Shown: positions 535 to 21,698, counted from the first letter of the stretch. The stretch is DNA of 23,598 bases from an uncultured archaeon (GCA_964392445.1 CAYMPD010000018.1:1-23598), one strand, 5' to 3'. A program made the numbers and translations. The notes: generated by a model not told the origin, from the sequence alone.

Positions 535-544
535 TTATTTAAAA
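535..544 (+). promoter_or_regulatory. Putative TATA box of the pheS operon
   Basis: TTATTTAAAA about 25-30 nt upstream of the 25-bp element; same geometry as TTTTAAATA at 5086-5094. Confidence 0.5.
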
Positions 545-565
545 CTAACCAACTAATAATAATCC

Positions 566-590
566 AAGTGAACGTGATGCCGTACCAATT
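566..590 (+). repeat. 25-bp exact direct repeat, copy 1 (AAGTGAACGTGATGCCGTACCAATT)
   Basis: Identical 25-mer read at 566-590 and 5117-5141. Confidence 0.95.
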
Positions 591-616
591 TCTAAGCTAA
601 CTCAAACCGAAGATTT

Positions 617-649
617 TTCTACTCTTAAAACTAAACCATTAAGAGAGGA
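617..649 (+). promoter_or_regulatory. Hairpin occluding the pheS ribosome-binding site
   Basis: CTCTTAA (622-628) pairs perfectly with TTAAGAG (639-645), extendable by TTCT/AGGA past a bulged A621; covers the purine-rich GAGAGGA 5 nt before the ATG at 655. Confidence 0.5.
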
Positions 650-654
650 TAACA

Positions 655-2181
655 ATGAATGACAAGGAATTAATCAATAGATTACATAATAACGAAAAAA
701 GGATTCTAAAGGCTCTAGAAGGAAAGAAATCATTAACTTTCAAAGAATTGCAACAAGAAACTAATCTAAACAAAGACACTCTTGAGAAAGCATCACTCTG
801 GGCAAAGGTTAAAGGAGTGTTAAAAATAGATGAGGAAATAACTGAATTTCTGGAATTGACAAAAGAAGGTGAAGAATATGCCAAAAATGAATTACCAGAA
901 AGAAAACTTCTAAATGAAGTTAAAAAAGGAGAATCGGAAATATCCAAACTCAAGAAAAAAGTGAAAAAGTTTGATATAGGTTTAGTTTGGCTGAACAAGA
1001 ATAATTGGGTTGAGATCCAAAAAGGTGAATTAAAATTAACAAACAAAGGAAGGAAAGCATTGGAAGAAACATTGCCCGAGGAAAAAATCCTTTCTAAACT
1101 AACTAAAGGAAAACAAAAAGCTAAAGATTTTGATCCAATAGTAATTGATAAGTTGGAAAAAAGAGGCTTAATAGATAAATCAGTCAAGAAAAAAAGAGAT
1201 GTTTCATTAACAAAAAGAGGAAAGGAAATTTTACCGAAAATTGAAATCAACCAAAATATAGGTCAATTAACACCAAAAATACTAAAGGAAAAAACTTGGA
1301 AAGAGTCTGGTATTCGACCTTATGACGTTACTTTACCCACGTCCAACATTCATCCTGCGAAAAAGCACTACATGACCCAGATAATAGAGTACATTCGCCA
1401 AATTTGGACAGATATGGGATTCAAAGAGATGACTGGACCATTGCTTGACATTTCATTCTGGAACTTTGATGCTCTATATCAACCTCAAGATCACCCCGCT
1501 CGGGATATGGCAGATACATTTTACATGAAAATACCTGAGAAGGGCAAATTACCAGATGAAGAAATAGTTGAAAAAGTAAAAATGACCCACGAAAATGGAT
1601 GGGATACTAGTTCTAAGGGTTGGCAATATGATTGGGATCCTGAATTTGCAAGAAAATGTGTTTTAAGAACACATACTACTTCATTGTCATCAAGAACTCT
1701 AGCTCAATTAAGAAAGGATATTGATAAAAATGCTTTGCCTGCAAAATACTTTTCCGTGGGTAGATGTTTTAGGAACGAAACGATCGATTGGAAACATTTG
1801 GCGGAATTCTATCAGACTGACGGAATAGTTGTCGGTGAAGATGTTAATTTTAGACAATTCCTATTTTATTTGAAAAGATATTTCTCCAAACTTGGATTCC
1901 CAAAGGCTAGATTTAGACCCGCGTACTTTCCTTACACAGAAATGTCAACAGAAATAGAAGTTTTCCATCCAAAACACAAAGAATGGTTAGAACTAGGTGG
2001 TGCTGGGATTTTCAGACCTGAAGTTGTAAAACCTCTTTTGGGTAAAGATATCCCCGTTTTAGCATGGGGACCTGGATTTGGAAGAATAGTTATGATGAAT
2101 TACGAGGTTGATGATATGAGAGAATTGTATACGAATGATCTGAAAAAAATAAGAGAAGCTAAAATATGGTTGGGTTTATGA
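655..2181 (+). CDS. pheS: Phenylalanyl-tRNA synthetase alpha subunit, archaeal type
   Basis: N-terminal wHTH extension, FWNFDALYQPQDHPARDMADTFY, LRTHTT, motif 2 FRNETIDWKHLAEFYQ, FRPAYFPYTE, motif 3 GGAGIFRPEV..AWG.G..R. Confidence 0.97.
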   Translation: MNDKELINRLHNNEKRILKALEGKKSLTFKELQQETNLNKDTLEKASLWAKVKGVLKIDEEITEFLELTKEGEEYAKNELPERKLLNEVKKGESEISKLKKKVKKFDIGLVWLNKNNWVEIQKGELKLTNKGRKALEETLPEEKILSKLTKGKQKAKDFDPIVIDKLEKRGLIDKSVKKKRDVSLTKRGKEILPKIEINQNIGQLTPKILKEKTWKESGIRPYDVTLPTSNIHPAKKHYMTQIIEYIRQIWTDMGFKEMTGPLLDISFWNFDALYQPQDHPARDMADTFYMKIPEKGKLPDEEIVEKVKMTHENGWDTSSKGWQYDWDPEFARKCVLRTHTTSLSSRTLAQLRKDIDKNALPAKYFSVGRCFRNETIDWKHLAEFYQTDGIVVGEDVNFRQFLFYLKRYFSKLGFPKARFRPAYFPYTEMSTEIEVFHPKHKEWLELGGAGIFRPEVVKPLLGKDIPVLAWGPGFGRIVMMNYEVDDMRELYTNDLKKIREAKIWLGL

Positions 2182-2951
2182 AAGAAGTACTAATCAAAAC
2201 CGCAAAAGAATCAGGGAAGATTTTGTTAGATAACATAGGAGGTGAAAAAGCCACTACTGTACTCGAGCAAAAAAGTAGATATGACTATTCAACGAAAATG
2301 GACAAACTGATCGAAGACAAAATAATTCAAGACTTCAGAGAAAATGGAATCAAAGGGACGGTAATAGCAGAGGAAGGTGGTGAAACTAAATTGAGTGATG
2401 ACGATTACAAGATTTATGTGGATCCTTTGGATGGAACTATTAATTATTCAATAGAGATACCTGTGTTCTGTACTTCAATTGGTGTTAAAAAAGGCAATGA
2501 GATGAAAATGGGTGTTATATATTACCCGGTCAGAGATGAATTATTCTTTGCTGAAAGGGGAAAGGGTGCGTTTTTAAATGGGGAGAAGATTTATTTAAGT
2601 GGTCAAAATAGCTTGGAAGATTCTACACTTGAAGTCGGTTGGAGTTCTGACCAAAAAAAAGAAAGAGATGATATCTTAAAAAAACTTGAGATGGTAGTTG
2701 GAGTCAGAATGTTATGTTGTGCTGCACTTGCAGTCGCTTTTGTTGGGTGTGGTCGGTTTGATGGTTTAGTTCATACATCAGCACATCATCCGTGGGACAT
2801 TGCAGCGGGAAGTGTTATAATTGAAGAAGCTGGTGGTAAAATAATAGATTTTAATGGTAAAAGATGGGATGAGAATAGTGAAACTTTGGTTGCTTCTAAC
2901 AAGGTATTGCACAAACAACTTTTGGAAGTGTTGGAGGATTGGGATAAATGA
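2178..2951 (+). CDS. Inositol monophosphatase / SuhB-like (IMPase-FBPase family)
   Basis: IAEE, DPLDGTINY and WDIAAG motifs. Start taken at ATG 2178, which overlaps the pheS stop (ATGA). Confidence 0.9.
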   Translation: MKEVLIKTAKESGKILLDNIGGEKATTVLEQKSRYDYSTKMDKLIEDKIIQDFRENGIKGTVIAEEGGETKLSDDDYKIYVDPLDGTINYSIEIPVFCTSIGVKKGNEMKMGVIYYPVRDELFFAERGKGAFLNGEKIYLSGQNSLEDSTLEVGWSSDQKKERDDILKKLEMVVGVRMLCCAALAVAFVGCGRFDGLVHTSAHHPWDIAAGSVIIEEAGGKIIDFNGKRWDENSETLVASNKVLHKQLLEVLEDWDK

Positions 2952-3064
2952 AAAATGGTTTAAAATTCAACTTTCAGTTAAAACCGAAAGTTTCGGGAAA
3001 AACCGGAAACTGGTGTTCACTAAAAAGCGAACATCTTGGAAAAAACCGAACGGGTGAAAAATAA
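2948..3064 (+). CDS. Putative 38-aa bridge peptide MKNGLKFNFQLKPKVSGKTGNWCSLKSEHLGKNRTGEK (not in ORF track)
   Basis: ATG overlaps the IMPase TGA (ATGA); its TAA (3062-3064) directly abuts the pheT ATG in the same frame. Confidence 0.45.
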   Translation: MKNGLKFNFQLKPKVSGKTGNWCSLKSEHLGKNRTGEK

Positions 3065-4759
3065 ATGCCAGTAATATCAATCGATAAAAAAGACTTTTGT
3101 CAACTAGCAGGAAAAGAGTTTACAATAGAAGAAATTGCAGAAAATATACCAATGATGGGAACAGCTTGGGAAGGTGTTAGAGGTGATACGTTTGATGTTG
3201 AAGTGTTCCCAAACCGTCCAGACATGTTGTCAGTGGAAGGGTTAGCCAGAGCTTTCTCGAGTTATATGGGTGTTAACTCTGGTCTAAGAAATTATCAATT
3301 AGAAGGATCACAAGAAATGGTAGTGGTCGAAAATAAAGTAGCTGAGGTAAGACCTTACTTCGTTTCGTGTATTATCAAAGATGTTGAATTCAATGATGAT
3401 TTTATTAAATCTGTAATGCAATTACAAGAGAAATTACACATCACTCACTCTAGAAAAAGAAAGAAAACTGCGATTGGTCTCCATGATTATGACAAGATAG
3501 TTTTCCCAGTTATCTATACAACTAAACCAAAAGATTTCAAATTTATCCCACTTGAAGAGAATAAAGAAATGACATTGGAAGAAATTCTTGAAAAGCATCC
3601 TAAAGGTAAAGAATATGCCTGGATACTTGAGGGGATGGAAGAATATCCACTATTACATGATGCTCGCGACAGAGTTTTATCAATGCCACCAATAAGTAAC
3701 TCAGAAGATACTAAGGTTGAGGAAACTACCAAGAATATTTTTGTTGATATAACTGCTACTGATGAAAAGACTGCTAATGAAGTTCTGAATATAATTGCAA
3801 CTACTTTTGCTGATAGAGGAGCTAAGATTCATAAGATAAAAATAAAGTATCCTGGAAAAATGATTTACACACCTGACTTTAGCCCGCAAGCGATGACTGT
3901 TGAGTCTAACTACATAAATAAACTCCTGGGACTGAAATTAAAAAATAAAGAAATAATTGAACTTCTGAGAAGAATGGGGCATGATGTAGAAGAAATAGGA
4001 AGTGATAAATTAAGAGTGTTCTCACCTTGTTATCGGACAGACATAATGCATCCAATGGATCTGGTTGAGGATGTTGCTATTGCTTATGGTTATGATAAAT
4101 TTGAACCCAAGATTCCGAATATAGCGACTATTGGTGAAGAGGATCCAAAAGAGGTTTTCTGTACTAATTTGAGATCACTTCTGGTGGGATATGGTTTGCA
4201 GGAAGTTGTTACATTCATACTCACGAACAAGAATGATTTGTTTAAAAAAATGAACATGGAGGAAAGGGCTATAGCCGAGACAAGTAATGCGAAGACAAGC
4301 GAGTACAATGTTGTTAGAAATTGGTTATTACCTAGTTTAATGGAAGTACTCGCGGGGAATAAACACAATGAATACCCTCAAAATCTGTTTGAAGTGGGAG
4401 AAGTAGTTGAACTTGCTGATAATGATATCGGAAATAAAACCATGAAAAGGCTTGCGATAACTCTTTGTCATTCAAAAGCTAATTTTTCCGAGATGAAGTC
4501 GTTGGTTGAAAGTATTCTTGCTAATGTTGGTGTGGATAGTTACAAAGTTGAAAAATCTGAATGTCCTTGCTATGTTCCTGGACGTGCTGTAAAGTTCACT
4601 GTTAATGATAGAGCCTTAGCTAGGTTTGGGGAGATTGATCCTAAAGTACTGGAAAAATGGGGGTTAGAAATGCCTGTTGTTGGCGGAGAGATTTGTGTAG
4701 AATTGTTATTTGATTTGATTAATAATGAAACCCAAAGATATTTCAAAAATTCATCTTGA
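3065..4759 (+). CDS. pheT: Phenylalanyl-tRNA synthetase beta subunit, archaeal/eukaryotic type
   Basis: MPVI start, EVFPNRPDMLSVEGLARA, LQEKLH...R.RKK.AIGLHD, VLSMPPI.NS, R.DIMHPMDLVEDVAIAYGY, NKHNEYPQNLFEVG. Confidence 0.97.
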   Translation: MPVISIDKKDFCQLAGKEFTIEEIAENIPMMGTAWEGVRGDTFDVEVFPNRPDMLSVEGLARAFSSYMGVNSGLRNYQLEGSQEMVVVENKVAEVRPYFVSCIIKDVEFNDDFIKSVMQLQEKLHITHSRKRKKTAIGLHDYDKIVFPVIYTTKPKDFKFIPLEENKEMTLEEILEKHPKGKEYAWILEGMEEYPLLHDARDRVLSMPPISNSEDTKVEETTKNIFVDITATDEKTANEVLNIIATTFADRGAKIHKIKIKYPGKMIYTPDFSPQAMTVESNYINKLLGLKLKNKEIIELLRRMGHDVEEIGSDKLRVFSPCYRTDIMHPMDLVEDVAIAYGYDKFEPKIPNIATIGEEDPKEVFCTNLRSLLVGYGLQEVVTFILTNKNDLFKKMNMEERAIAETSNAKTSEYNVVRNWLLPSLMEVLAGNKHNEYPQNLFEVGEVVELADNDIGNKTMKRLAITLCHSKANFSEMKSLVESILANVGVDSYKVEKSECPCYVPGRAVKFTVNDRALARFGEIDPKVLEKWGLEMPVVGGEICVELLFDLINNETQRYFKNSS

Positions 4760-5063
4760 AAAAGAAATCGGAAAAATCGAGAAACCCTGGTATCCTGTAG
4801 ATATAACTAGGATAAATGACCAAGTAATTAGACTAGCTAAATTTGATGGTAAATTTCATTGGCATAAACATACAACTGAAGATGAACTTTTTTATGTATT
4901 AAAAGGAGAGATTAATATTCACCTAAAAGATCAACCCAATATAAAATTAAATGAGGGGGAAATGGTGGTGATACCTAAGGGGATAGAACATTGTCCTGAA
5001 AGTGAAAAGCCTTCATATGTTCTTTTATTTGAACCTTTTAACTTGAAGAGTAAAGGTGATTAG
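4725..5063 (+). CDS. Cupin-domain protein
   Basis: Cupin motifs FHWHKHTTEDELFYVLKG and GEMVVIPKGIEHCP; overlaps the pheT 3' end by 35 nt. Confidence 0.88.
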   Translation: MKPKDISKIHLEKEIGKIEKPWYPVDITRINDQVIRLAKFDGKFHWHKHTTEDELFYVLKGEINIHLKDQPNIKLNEGEMVVIPKGIEHCPESEKPSYVLLFEPFNLKSKGD

Positions 5064-5116
5064 TTCAACTCTACTTGCGGGTTTCTTTTAAATATACGAT
5101 TGACAAAATTAATGAG

Positions 5117-5141
5117 AAGTGAACGTGATGCCGTACCAATT
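5117..5141 (+). repeat. 25-bp exact direct repeat, copy 2
   Basis: Identical to 566-590; TTTTAAATA at 5086-5094 lies upstream. Confidence 0.95.
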
Positions 5142-5199
5142 CGAGAGTTTGGTTTAGAACTTTGGTATTTGGTTAGACCTATTTCTGTGCGAGGTGTTG

Positions 5200-5534
5200 A
5201 TGGTGACTGAACGCCAATTTATCTAGCCGAGGGACAATTAGAGGTTCTTCGGAAAATTATTGAAAGAGGATTGAATGATAATCAGATACTTATTCTCGGC
5301 GAGCTTGCAAGTAATGGTCATTATCTTACTGTTACTGACTGCCTGAATAGTATGTCAAAAAAATATGGTATTGCCGAATCTACTCTTCGTTGGAATGTTA
5401 ATGTACTGAAGGATTTGGGATTAATCAAATGCGGTAATGGTGATCCTATCTTACTTACTGATTTTGGAATACTAGTTTGTAAAATTTTAGGAGGTGATGA
5501 ATGGTGTTCTGGTCCCCAAGATTTGGGAAAATAG
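5200..5534 (+). CDS. Winged-helix putative transcription regulator with an apparent 5' frameshift (track start TTG 5271)
   Basis: wHTH-like SKKYGIAESTLRWNVNVLKDLGLIKCG...ILLTDFG. The frame is open and protein-like upstream of 5271 (YLAEGQLEVLRKIIERG), but the SD GAGGTG (5191-5196) and ATG 5200 are in another frame (MVTERQFI*). Confidence 0.65.
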
Positions 5535-5722
5535 AAAATCCAACCCTGAGTGAAATACTATTAACAGAGATGAGAAAAGACCCGGAAAGAGGATATAGAT
5601 CTACTTACTTAGCAGATGGAATAAACTATACCCCACAAGAAGTCGGAGAGGAATTAGCTAGAATGAGAGAATCAGGAGTTGTTATAAAAAATGGCAAAAG
5701 TTGGTATCTAACTGAAAAGTAA
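5501..5722 (+). CDS. Small winged-helix protein
   Basis: SD GGAGGTGA before the ATG; pattern YRSTYLADGINYTPQEVGEELARMRESGVVIKNGKSWYL fits a wHTH. Confidence 0.7.
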   Translation: MVFWSPRFGKIENPTLSEILLTEMRKDPERGYRSTYLADGINYTPQEVGEELARMRESGVVIKNGKSWYLTEK

Positions 5723-7388: not shown

Positions 7389-7576
7389 CCTCCTTTTCTA
7401 AACTCGAGATACCAGATTTCTATAATTGAAAATCATACCAAAATTTATTTTCCCCAATAATTAAAAATTGAGGTTCAAAACATATAGTAATATTTTTTCT
7501 ATTTAAGATAATTATTTTTTCTATCTGAAATAATTTTAAATATTTAACGATTATTCCACTTGGTATATAATAAGAA

Positions 7577-11035: not shown

Positions 11036-11129
11036 TGGGCCCGGAGGGATTTGAACCCTCGACCTTCAGGTTAGAAGCCTGCAGCTATAGACTCCTGGAA
11101 AGGATCTATCCAAGCTGAGCTACGGACCC
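11036..11129 (-). tRNA. tRNA-Arg(TCT) with a 19-nt intron at 11087-11105 (position 22/23); CCA not encoded
   Basis: Acceptor GGGUCCG/CGGGCCC, anticodon loop CUUCUAA, T arm GAGGG-UUCAAAU-CCCUC. Removing 19 nt restores the D-stem GCUC/GAGC and a 75-nt tRNA. Confidence 0.92.
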
Positions 11130-21178: not shown

Positions 21179-21622
21179 ATGAAAAAGATGGTGATGAATA
21201 GGTCCAGGAAATCCTTTTTTGTTGGATATATTTTTGCGATACTATTTGCTCTGTTCGTAATTTTTGTCTATATCTTGGACGTATTTCCTCCCTTCTTTAT
21301 CTACTTATTATCTTTCCCTGCGATTTACTTGTTTTTACTCCCGGAATACAACATACTCAACAACAGATACTTAATCAAGGACGAGAATGTAGAAGAAGAA
21401 ACCGGAATCATAAGCAAGAAAAAAACCATTATCCCCTGGAATTTGGTTGGCCATGTCTCGATGAAGAAAAGTATTATGGGAATTTTTTTGGACTACGGGA
21501 ATATCATCGTCAGTAGTATAGGTGGTCATGGGGAGAAGATTGTTATGAGAGGGATAAGTGATCCTGAAAGAGTTCTTAGAAAGATTGAAGAGAAGATTGG
21601 GAAGAATAAGGTAAGTTATTGA
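21179..21622 (+). CDS. Membrane protein with a bacterial-type PH domain (bPH_2-like)
   Basis: Two TM helices then RYLIK....EETGIISKKKTIIP, SMKKSIMGIFLDYGNI.V, MRGISDPE. Confidence 0.8.
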   Translation: MKKMVMNRSRKSFFVGYIFAILFALFVIFVYILDVFPPFFIYLLSFPAIYLFLLPEYNILNNRYLIKDENVEEETGIISKKKTIIPWNLVGHVSMKKSIMGIFLDYGNIIVSSIGGHGEKIVMRGISDPERVLRKIEEKIGKNKVSY

Positions 21623-21698
21623 GATTCTTTTTTGTATAGGTGTTTTTTCTATTTTAGTAAAATGTTAAAAATAAAATGATTCAGATCCTATTTTAATT

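Follow-up and report, generated by a model that had tools for sequence, protein, structure and literature searches.

Why should the phenylalanyl-tRNA synthetase (PheRS) operon of an uncultured archaeon and the small regulatory gene that follows it be preceded by the same 25 nucleotides? The question is raised by a stretch of 23,598 nucleotides (GCA_964392445.1 CAYMPD010000018.1:1-23598), here called the window, which is the whole of contig C18 in a genome of 1,215,121 bases (54 contigs, 94.9% complete, about 34% G+C); the sequencing runs that contain this DNA come from a microbial mat metagenome. The comparisons reported here indicate that each copy is the 5' end of a conserved, translated leader that is almost certainly specific for the cognate codon, and that this leader probably acts as a sensor of charged tRNA, by programmed -1 frameshifting on C-CAA-XXX at a hungry codon, as judged from the sequences.

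The repeat itself is as the initial annotation of the window had described it. AAGTGAACGTGATGCCGTACCAATT occurs exactly at 566-590 and 5117-5141, both times on the + strand, with differing flanks, and none would be expected from shuffles of the window. A TTTAAA box begins 28 nt 5' of copy 1 (at 538) and another 30 nt 5' of copy 2 (at 5087), and the gene content, pheS, an inositol monophosphatase gene, pheT and a cupin gene after copy 1, and, downstream of the cupin gene, small winged helix–turn–helix (wHTH) genes after copy 2, agrees with Pfam. The leaders measure 64 nt (copy 1) and 58 nt (copy 2) and lead into Shine–Dalgarno (SD) sequences, GAGAGGA at 643-649 preceding the pheS ATG at 655; of this part of the annotation only the start of the wHTH gene has to be given up, as the ATG at 5200 is not in frame with the wHTH open reading frame (ORF), which extends from 5211 to 5534. 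No further match to the 25-mer with up to three mismatches was found in the window or in the entire 1,215,121-base genome, and none of its sub-words of 12 nt or more occurs elsewhere in the genome.

The element is conserved in related archaea. It was found with up to three mismatches in nine of 60 relatives, versus none for a reversed control. A wider search made use of a degenerate pattern and of a covariance model, sequence-only and derived from 38 copies; it detected the element in 32 of 118 genomes of the order and in further families of the class, at one to six copies per genome. Removal of the matches inside coding sequence (e.g. rpoA') left 69 elements in more than 40 related genomes. 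Among public pheS records, the nearest carry the label Candidatus Aenigmatarchaeota, and the element-bearing relatives are Aenigmatarchaeota, a class of DPANN archaea, while the motif was not found in the pheS upstream regions of 40 other archaeal lineages. The conservation 5' of both pheS and wHTH orthologues bears out the proposal that a shared regulatory element couples the pheS operon to the neighbouring wHTH gene.

The composition of the element is that of a translation start. All 69 elements are oriented as the downstream gene and, once they are aligned, a TTTTAAA signal peaks at -29 to -23 (counted from motif position 1), a distance that puts the start of transcription at about motif positions 1-3. 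The near-invariant positions are G3-U-G-A6, R9-U-G-A-U-G14, C15-C16 and C20-C-A-A23; read as RNA, the element is an SD-like GUGA, two to three nucleotides, and RUG-AUG-CCN-NNC-CAA followed by one variable codon (positions 24-26). A second GUGAU, which overlaps the start AUG (motif positions 12-14), is complementary over 5 bp to the 3' end of the 16S rRNA of this genome (...GGAUCACCUCCU). The AUG is invariant (69/69), the second codon specifies proline in 62 of the 69 elements by the synonymous triplets CCG, CCA or CCC, and synonymous exchanges are also seen in the variable codon (TTT/TTC, TAT/TAC). An invariant AUG together with synonymous changes in the Pro, TTY and TAY codons is the pattern of a translated mini-ORF, not that of an operator.

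There is a close correspondence between the variable codon and the gene that follows. TTY precedes pheS at 12 loci and a prephenate dehydratase-ACT gene (pheA, PF00800) at one locus; TCC precedes serS at seven loci and also HAD-IB phosphatases, whose best NCBIfam match is SerB, below the cut-off; TGG precedes the gene for TrpRS (377 bits, NCBIfam trpS equivalog); and GAC precedes a wHTH gene that is followed by the gene for a non-discriminating AspRS (419 bits). TAY, GGT, ATC and CCA are found before small wHTH regulators, and one of the TAT loci runs on into a HisC-like aminotransferase; the factor encoded after the GGT element is ArsR-like, and another element precedes a DUF7768 gene. The C-CAA-XXX leader module comes with at least eight different amino-acid codons. 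The codon agrees with the gene in 22 of 23 aminoacyl-tRNA synthetase (aaRS) or pheA loci, and we estimate at about 6e-8 the chance that five independent families (pheS, pheA, serS, trpS and aspS) would each match their own codon. The idea of a PheRS regulon put forward for this locus is too narrow, as the element is not specific for PheRS, being found also with Ser, Trp, Asp, Tyr, Gly, Ile and Pro codons.

Other genes were met downstream of such leaders. A TCC element (L084, G099:C11) precedes a 479-aa fusion of an MtrA-like part, a methanogen-type thymidylate synthase and a pterin-binding domain; this Ser-codon leader may tie one-carbon metabolism and the synthesis of dTMP to the supply of serine. 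Among the Phe-codon leaders of the other orders in the class, the commonest non-aaRS target is a conserved protein of unassigned family and about 90 aa (...VLE..SR.Y..GG...EIWYKS; L103, L104, L110 and L115), once as a direct -1 fusion.

The reading frames downstream of the variable codon point to a change of frame. All three frames were tested, the -1 frame being counted from the last A of CAA. All 69 elements have at least 18 open codons in it (median 33), compared with 10 of 69 for the +1 frame (median 7); frame 0 reaches a stop at a median of 4 codons past the start of the cognate codon, within 5 codons in 49 of 69. Given a genome-wide stop-triplet frequency of 0.063, the chance of 18 open codons is about 0.31. 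Clustering by 60% identity over the 60 nt past the cognate codon makes leaders of separate clusters essentially unalignable, and -1 was the longest frame in 25 of 26 clusters.

What the -1 frame leads to takes two layouts. In the fusion layout (26 elements) the -1 frame is the main ORF itself, encoding a Tar-like wHTH protein of 86-118 codons, a DUF7768 protein or others; none of these 26 main ORFs has its own start, each being a direct continuation of the -1 frame, and the family profile starts 7-21 residues past the shift site. In the coupling layout (43 elements) the -1 frame extends over 18-46 codons and its stop lies at the start of the next gene: in 32 of the 43 the distance between the -1 stop and the start of an ORF of at least 55 aa is no more than 30 nt, mostly -12 to +8, and four further elements end in a second shift module within a small upstream ORF (uORF2). 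The stop/start junctions include ATGAATGA for pheS, ATGTTTGA or ATGTTAG for serS, ATGGAAACTGA for trpS, TAGATG for pheA and GGAGGTGAaaagATG for others. The overlap of the window's pheS leader is retained, as ATGAATGA or ATGGATGA, in four other pheS leaders, and the only indel among the pheS leaders measures 6 nt (L006), which keeps the reading frame. Initiation at the near-cognate codon that opens the -1 frame (AUU, AUC or AUA) was considered as another way of reaching this frame and rejected: the Gly, Asp, Ile and Pro types do not allow it, as that codon is AGG, AGA, AAU or ACC in them, and it also leaves the match between codon and gene unexplained.

The conservation of C-CAA designates the putative slip site. 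It is present in 66 of the 69 elements; two elements have AAA instead, each time preceded by A (A-AAA), and one uORF2 has C-CGG. After a -1 shift, pairing would be kept at two of three positions on C-CAA, three of three on A-AAA and two of three on C-CGG, and the variants covary as expected for -1 re-pairing. Slippage of a single P-site tRNA next to a vacant A site is the accepted mechanism of 'hungry' -1 shifting (PMC8211752). GUGA is found 8 nt ahead of the P-site codon in the 25-mer, in the uORF2 of the window and in a third -1 module of this genome, on contig C4 (about 38352-38390, +; GTG ATG GTG ATG AAC CGC CAA TAT). The -1 frame of the C4 module (to about 38710) encodes a 105-aa wHTH protein of a second type, like those of L056 and L109, upstream of an Asp/Glu racemase gene. 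The genome also has a +1 cassette on contig C19 (18631-18680, +; ATG ACT GGT GAA TTA GTT TGG), of which the +1 frame encodes a wHTH N-terminus. GGUGA is there 4 nt ahead of the P-site GUU (GGUGA-N4-GUU-UGG), versus GUGA-N8-CAA-XXX in the -1 modules, which suggests that SD spacing sets the direction of the shift, a short spacing favouring +1 and a longer one -1. This archaeal pattern parallels the bacterial rule exemplified by prfB and dnaX, as it is cited in PMC8211752 from Larsen et al.: short SD spacing for +1 and long spacing for -1.

From these features we infer the whole of a frameshift response to starvation, which would proceed as follows. Transcription would start at about motif positions 1-3, and a ribosome guided by the SD-like GUGA would initiate at the AUG and read Met-Pro-Xaa-Gln, up to the point where CAA occupies the P site and the cognate codon, Phe TTT or TTC in the window, the A site. 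When Phe-tRNA(Phe) is plentiful this codon would be decoded, the ribosome would stop a few codons on and the downstream gene would be poorly expressed, possibly with the aid of a U-tract terminator-like signal or of SD masking. When Phe-tRNA(Phe) is scarce, the P-site tRNA(Gln) would slip from CAA to CCA, with positions one and three still paired, and the slipped ribosome would proceed in the -1 frame, the junction in the pheS leader being MPYQ-ISK. In the pheS leader the -1 frame would take the ribosome over 24 codons to the stop that overlaps the pheS start, and by virtue of this overlap PheRS synthesis would rise by termination–reinitiation. At the wHTH locus the -1 frame would end inside the SD-led uORF2, where a second C-CAA-TTT is present and the -1 frame encodes a Tar-like regulator; this regulator, lying in the -1 frame of uORF2, would be made only by frameshifting, with the predicted junction MVTERQ-IYLAEGQLEVLR (MVTERQ-IYLAEGQ). 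Beyond this locus, it seems on balance rather more plausible than otherwise that in Aenigmatarchaeota, and with other slip sites in other archaea, such a codon-programmable frameshift switch serves as a general aminoacyl-tRNA sensor, in which the exchange of one codon would put aaRS, biosynthesis genes and Tar-like activators under the control of Phe, Ser, Trp, Asp, Tyr, Gly, Ile or Pro charging, and in which activators made only upon shifting would broadcast starvation to a regulon.

The gene structure at the wHTH locus also speaks for a shift. The carrier-into-uORF2 layout is the same in the orthologues L009, L012 and L016; the ATG at 5200 opens uORF2, which contains GGUGA (5202-5206) and the second C-CAA-TTT (5214-5220), and orthologous uORF2 encode MVTEHQFI*, MVIDSRF* (with C-CGG-TTC) and VINYQF*. 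The wHTH frame is open from 5211, and no ATG, GTG or TTG is present before TTG 5271. The match to NF053753 (62 bits, profile positions 1-87) nevertheless covers 5244-5501, and in the AlphaFold2 model (pLDDT 83.7, pTM 0.75) a helix of residues 7-20 is encoded upstream of residue 21, which corresponds to TTG 5271. Homology and a confidently predicted helix upstream of the first possible start codon suggest that the regulator appears to need the shift, and its synthesis possibly involves two successive Phe-dependent shifts. Recoding of the TGA at 5208 as a sense codon was rejected, as there is no upstream start in that frame. Scores to NF053753 are 17-85 bits for the wHTH proteins, for a curated cut-off of 130, and NF053753 is their best and mostly their only match; by these profile scores the window's wHTH is a distant relative of TK0271 (Tar) and not a certified member of the family. 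The protein is predicted to have a winged-helix DNA-binding fold, the top Foldseek matches of the model being ArsR/SmtB/MarR regulators (TM 0.5-0.6, weak E-values). A related-locus search with this single wHTH protein as query returned no relatives.

The promoter of this gene has a feature of its own. ACTTGCGGRTTT and the TATA box are kept in four orthologous wHTH promoters (L002, L009, L012 and L016); ACTTGCGG occurs only once in the genome and for this reason was rejected as a regulon motif; it may serve in autoregulation or bind some other factor. TATTTCT is found at 5180-5186, inside the carrier ORF of copy 2. For the second small gene, at 5501-5722, L016 has a conserved partner.

The coordinates of the features are given in Table 1.

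Table 1. Features of the leader elements and of the genes they precede, in window coordinates
Feature	Position	Strand	Basis
TATA box of the pheS operon promoter, ATTTAAAA	537-544	+	sequence
25-mer copy 1, 5' end of the leader; SD-like GUGA 568-571 and GUGAU 574-578	566-590	+	exact repeat, conservation in relatives
Leader mini-ORF 1, ATG CCG TAC CAA TTT CTA AGC TAA (MPYQFLS*)	577-600	+	sequence, conserved frame features
Proposed -1 slip site C-CAA-TTT; P site CAA 586-588, A site Phe codon 589-591	585-591	+	C-CAA conservation
-1 carrier ORF of the pheS leader, 24 codons, ATT 588 to TGA 660-662; overlaps the pheS start (ATGAATGA, 655-662)	588-662	+	frame analysis
TTTTTCT tract of the pheS leader; candidate terminator or pause signal, or 5' arm of an SD-masking hairpin	614-620	+	leader comparison
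Controlled operon, pheS to cupin	655-5063	+	Pfam
pheS	655-2181	+	Pfam
Inositol monophosphatase family gene	2166-2951	+	Pfam
pheT	3065-4759	+	Pfam
Cupin gene	4725-5063	+	Pfam
wHTH promoter: conserved ACTTGCGG 5072-5079 directly 5' of the TATA box TTTTAAATATA 5086-5096	5072-5096	+	comparison
25-mer copy 2	5117-5141	+	exact repeat
Leader mini-ORF of copy 2, MPYQFESLV*; predicted slip site C-CAA-TTC 5136-5142	5128-5157	+	sequence
-1 carrier ORF of copy 2, 23 codons; TGA 5208-5210, 8 nt past the uORF2 ATG	5139-5210	+	frame analysis
SD GAGGTG 5191-5196 and uORF2, ATG 5200 to TAG 5224-5226, MVTERQFI* (8 codons)	5191-5226	+	sequence
Putative Tar/TK0271-like wHTH regulator, -1 frame of uORF2	5217-5534	+	NF053753, AlphaFold2, Foldseek
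Second small gene, 73 aa, wHTH-like by eye, no family match	5501-5722	+	Pfam

The coupling-type leaders share a T-tract that may add a further layer of control. TTTTCT(A) is found about 25 nt past the shift site in about 20 of them and is absent from the fusion type. For 659 long ORFs of this genome, such 7-mers are enriched 2.6-5x within 50 nt past the stop, exclusively on the coding strand, and the tract is possibly a terminator or pause signal that would be overridden when a shifted ribosome follows the polymerase; given its likeness to the 3'-end signal of the genome, an attenuation layer at the leader is possible. A second cognate codon within TTTTCT was rejected, as the codon phase of the tract varies. 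TTTTTTCTAT is found three times in intergenic DNA of the window (7493-7538 and 21643-21666), once about 20 nt past the stop of the ORF at 21179-21622; as it fits the enrichment of a T-tract followed by CT(A) after stops, it is likely a transcript 3'-end signal.

Could the ribosome simply stall at the single cognate codon without any shift, the stall altering the leader RNA or blocking a termination factor, as in TnaC/Rho-like or ermC-type attenuation? Such a mechanism would be in keeping with a translated mini-ORF that contains a cognate codon and terminates early, with the terminator-like T-tract of the coupling leaders and with the possible SD-masking hairpin of the window's pheS leader (618-628/639-649). 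This hairpin comes from a single-sequence fold and is not conserved, single-sequence folds of the leaders are weak and inconsistent, and no consensus structure was obtained with RNAalifold from five pheS leaders; no conserved alternative hairpins were found, and with a single cognate codon the leaders do not have the make-up of trp- or phe-type attenuators. As stalling also leaves unexplained a -1 frame that is open in 69 of 69 elements and ends at a start codon, and 26 main ORFs devoid of a start, we regard it as an unlikely account, although the most serious of the alternatives. A T-box-like RNA, in which the anticodon of uncharged tRNA would pair with the leader codon and remodel the leader with no need for translation, would account for a single specifier codon that matches the downstream aaRS, and a leader with TAA in front of its specifier (L007) would still function. 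It is very improbable. The searches of Rfam at the gathering score and at E<=1 returned only two tRNAs elsewhere in the window and no T-box (RF00230), in agreement with the initial statement that no known riboswitch could be recognised, and they speak, together with the lack of a conserved fold, against the structured 5' RNA motif that had been envisaged. The sole possible internal hairpin of the 25-mer (ACG/CGU) was rejected, as the variable positions 8 and 17 do not covary; an invariant AUG in frame, a Pro codon that varies synonymously and the statistics of the frames are signs of decoding by a ribosome; and the element, within about 25 nt of the 5' end, is too short for a Stem I-like platform. 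Among other RNA readings, a C-box/k-turn (GUGAUG) or C/D sRNA was dropped because the leaders have no D box, and mimicry of a tRNA acceptor or anticodon (ACCA, UGAAC) because it is inconsistent across the variants.

Archaeal repressors often act at the transcription start site, and the reading first offered for the repeat was a DNA operator over that site, bound by the neighbouring wHTH, here Tar-like, in an autoregulated PheRS regulon. The element does overlap the predicted start, the wHTH gene carries it too, the ACTTGCGG that lies 5' of this gene's TATA box offers another candidate site, and some further control at the level of DNA is possible; but the element has no dyad symmetry, the weak palindrome initially noted (GAACG-TGATGC-CGTAC) not being borne out, its variable triplet changes with the amino acid, in keeping with the genetic code, between Phe, Ser, Trp and Asp genes, it is also present at loci with unrelated regulators (ArsR-like with GGT, and DUF7768), and the open -1 frame and the other frame statistics are left unexplained. 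An operator has in our opinion little chance of being the answer. A neutral recent duplication, or a small repeat family devoid of function, would produce identical copies with differing flanks, and the initial annotation had named a lack of conservation and a multiplicity of copies as the respective signs of these. The genome holds just two copies, and the element is kept at orthologous sites across genera, families and orders with 0-3 mismatches, in a constant orientation and at a constant distance from the TATA box; this conservation refutes a neutral duplication, to which we give practically no credit.

Several observations weigh against a frameshift sensor in the form proposed here. C-CAA would re-pair at only two of three positions and there is no classical X-XXY-YYZ heptamer, and no downstream stimulatory structure was found in the leaders. 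That more shifting takes place on uncharged tRNA is inferred from homeostatic logic only. One serS leader (L094, G004) has TTC and not TCC, with a degenerate first SD-like element and no clear TATA box, and in another (L007, G012) TAA replaces CAA; serS of the window's own genome has no element, and several of the regulators with Gly, Tyr, Ile or Pro codons have no evident cognate target gene.

To our knowledge, the sensing of individual tRNA charging and the regulation of aaRS are largely unknown in archaea, T-boxes and classical attenuators being bacterial. Like attenuation (E. coli pheST/pheM, pheA/pheL and trp) and T-boxes, the leaders described here would sense tRNA charging in the 5' leader of a cognate gene by means of a specifier codon; unlike them, they have neither runs of codons, terminator and antiterminator hairpins, nor Stem I and a T-box sequence, and would use a single codon and a change of frame as readout. 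The closest logic is that of the autoregulatory +1 frameshift of prfB (PMC5009743), which also has a short ORF in the zero frame and relies on an SD-like element set at a constant distance upstream of the shift site and on a P-site slip at a waiting A site, and in which the shifted product restores the limiting decoder, RF2 in that case, an aaRS or an activator of amino-acid supply in the present one. The prfB shift differs in being +1, at UGA, on CUU-U and with an SD spacing of 3 nt, compared with -1, a sense codon, C-CAA and 8 nt here; it is also bacterial, whereas the present modules are archaeal, carry at least eight codons and often would only deliver the shifted ribosome to a separate start codon. 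What would be new relative to prfB is the -1 direction, the use of sense codons as sensors, the modular exchange of codons and the occurrence in Archaea. In the ketolide-induced frameshift of the ermC leader (PMC5009743), translation of a spacer in the new frame activates downstream initiation, as is proposed for the coupling leaders of pheS, serS and trpS, but that system is bacterial, is triggered by an antibiotic rather than by a hungry codon and has a defined SD-masking structure. Shifting at hungry codons (Gallant and Lindsley) and the -1 shift of B. subtilis cdd on CGA_AAG with an upstream SD (PMC5009743) share with our proposal a one-tRNA P-site slip, an A site left vacant as aminoacyl-tRNA is limiting, and SD-like stimulation, but these are errors or events of set ratio.

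If the proposed mechanism is correct, these leaders would use hungry-codon frameshifting naturally, as sensor and effector at once; no natural example of hungry-codon shifting that yields a starvation-specific product was known to a 2016 review (PMC5009743). They would also add dozens of cases to the one cellular -1 programmed frameshift described in Archaea, that of fucA1 (PMC8211752). Our full-text literature search returned no published description of such a leader system. Tar activates aromatic amino-acid operons of T. kodakarensis; none of Trp, Tyr or Phe detached it from DNA, the way in which the absence of each is sensed being left open by the authors (PMC6737238). The leader-fused wHTH proteins are distant members of the same family as Tar (TK0271), with Phe or Tyr leader codons and in one case a HisC-like aminotransferase next to them; a need for frameshifting is not reported for Tar itself, and the proteins described here score below the 130-bit cut-off. 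An activator made only upon shortage of Phe- or Tyr-tRNA would be a simple answer to the problem of sensing the absence of an amino acid in these archaea, and would suggest how Tar-family regulators do so without binding the amino acid. The module would further be a compact, reprogrammable part in which the swap of one codon alters the sensed amino acid, and wHTH and other fusion-type genes would be called truncated, or missed, by standard gene finders.

Two other features of the window do not concern the leaders. The contig ends (1-65 and 23533-23597) form a 65-nt inverted repeat, and about 55 nt of the same stretch also end contigs C5, C12 and C27, which points to assembly breaks at a multi-copy repeat and not to the terminal repeat of a linear replicon; the repeat is perhaps the end of a mobile element. 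A 94-nt tRNA gene at 11036-11129 (-), with an Rfam score of 52 bits, is given a 4-nt anticodon by ARAGORN and is probably an intron-containing archaeal tRNA gene.

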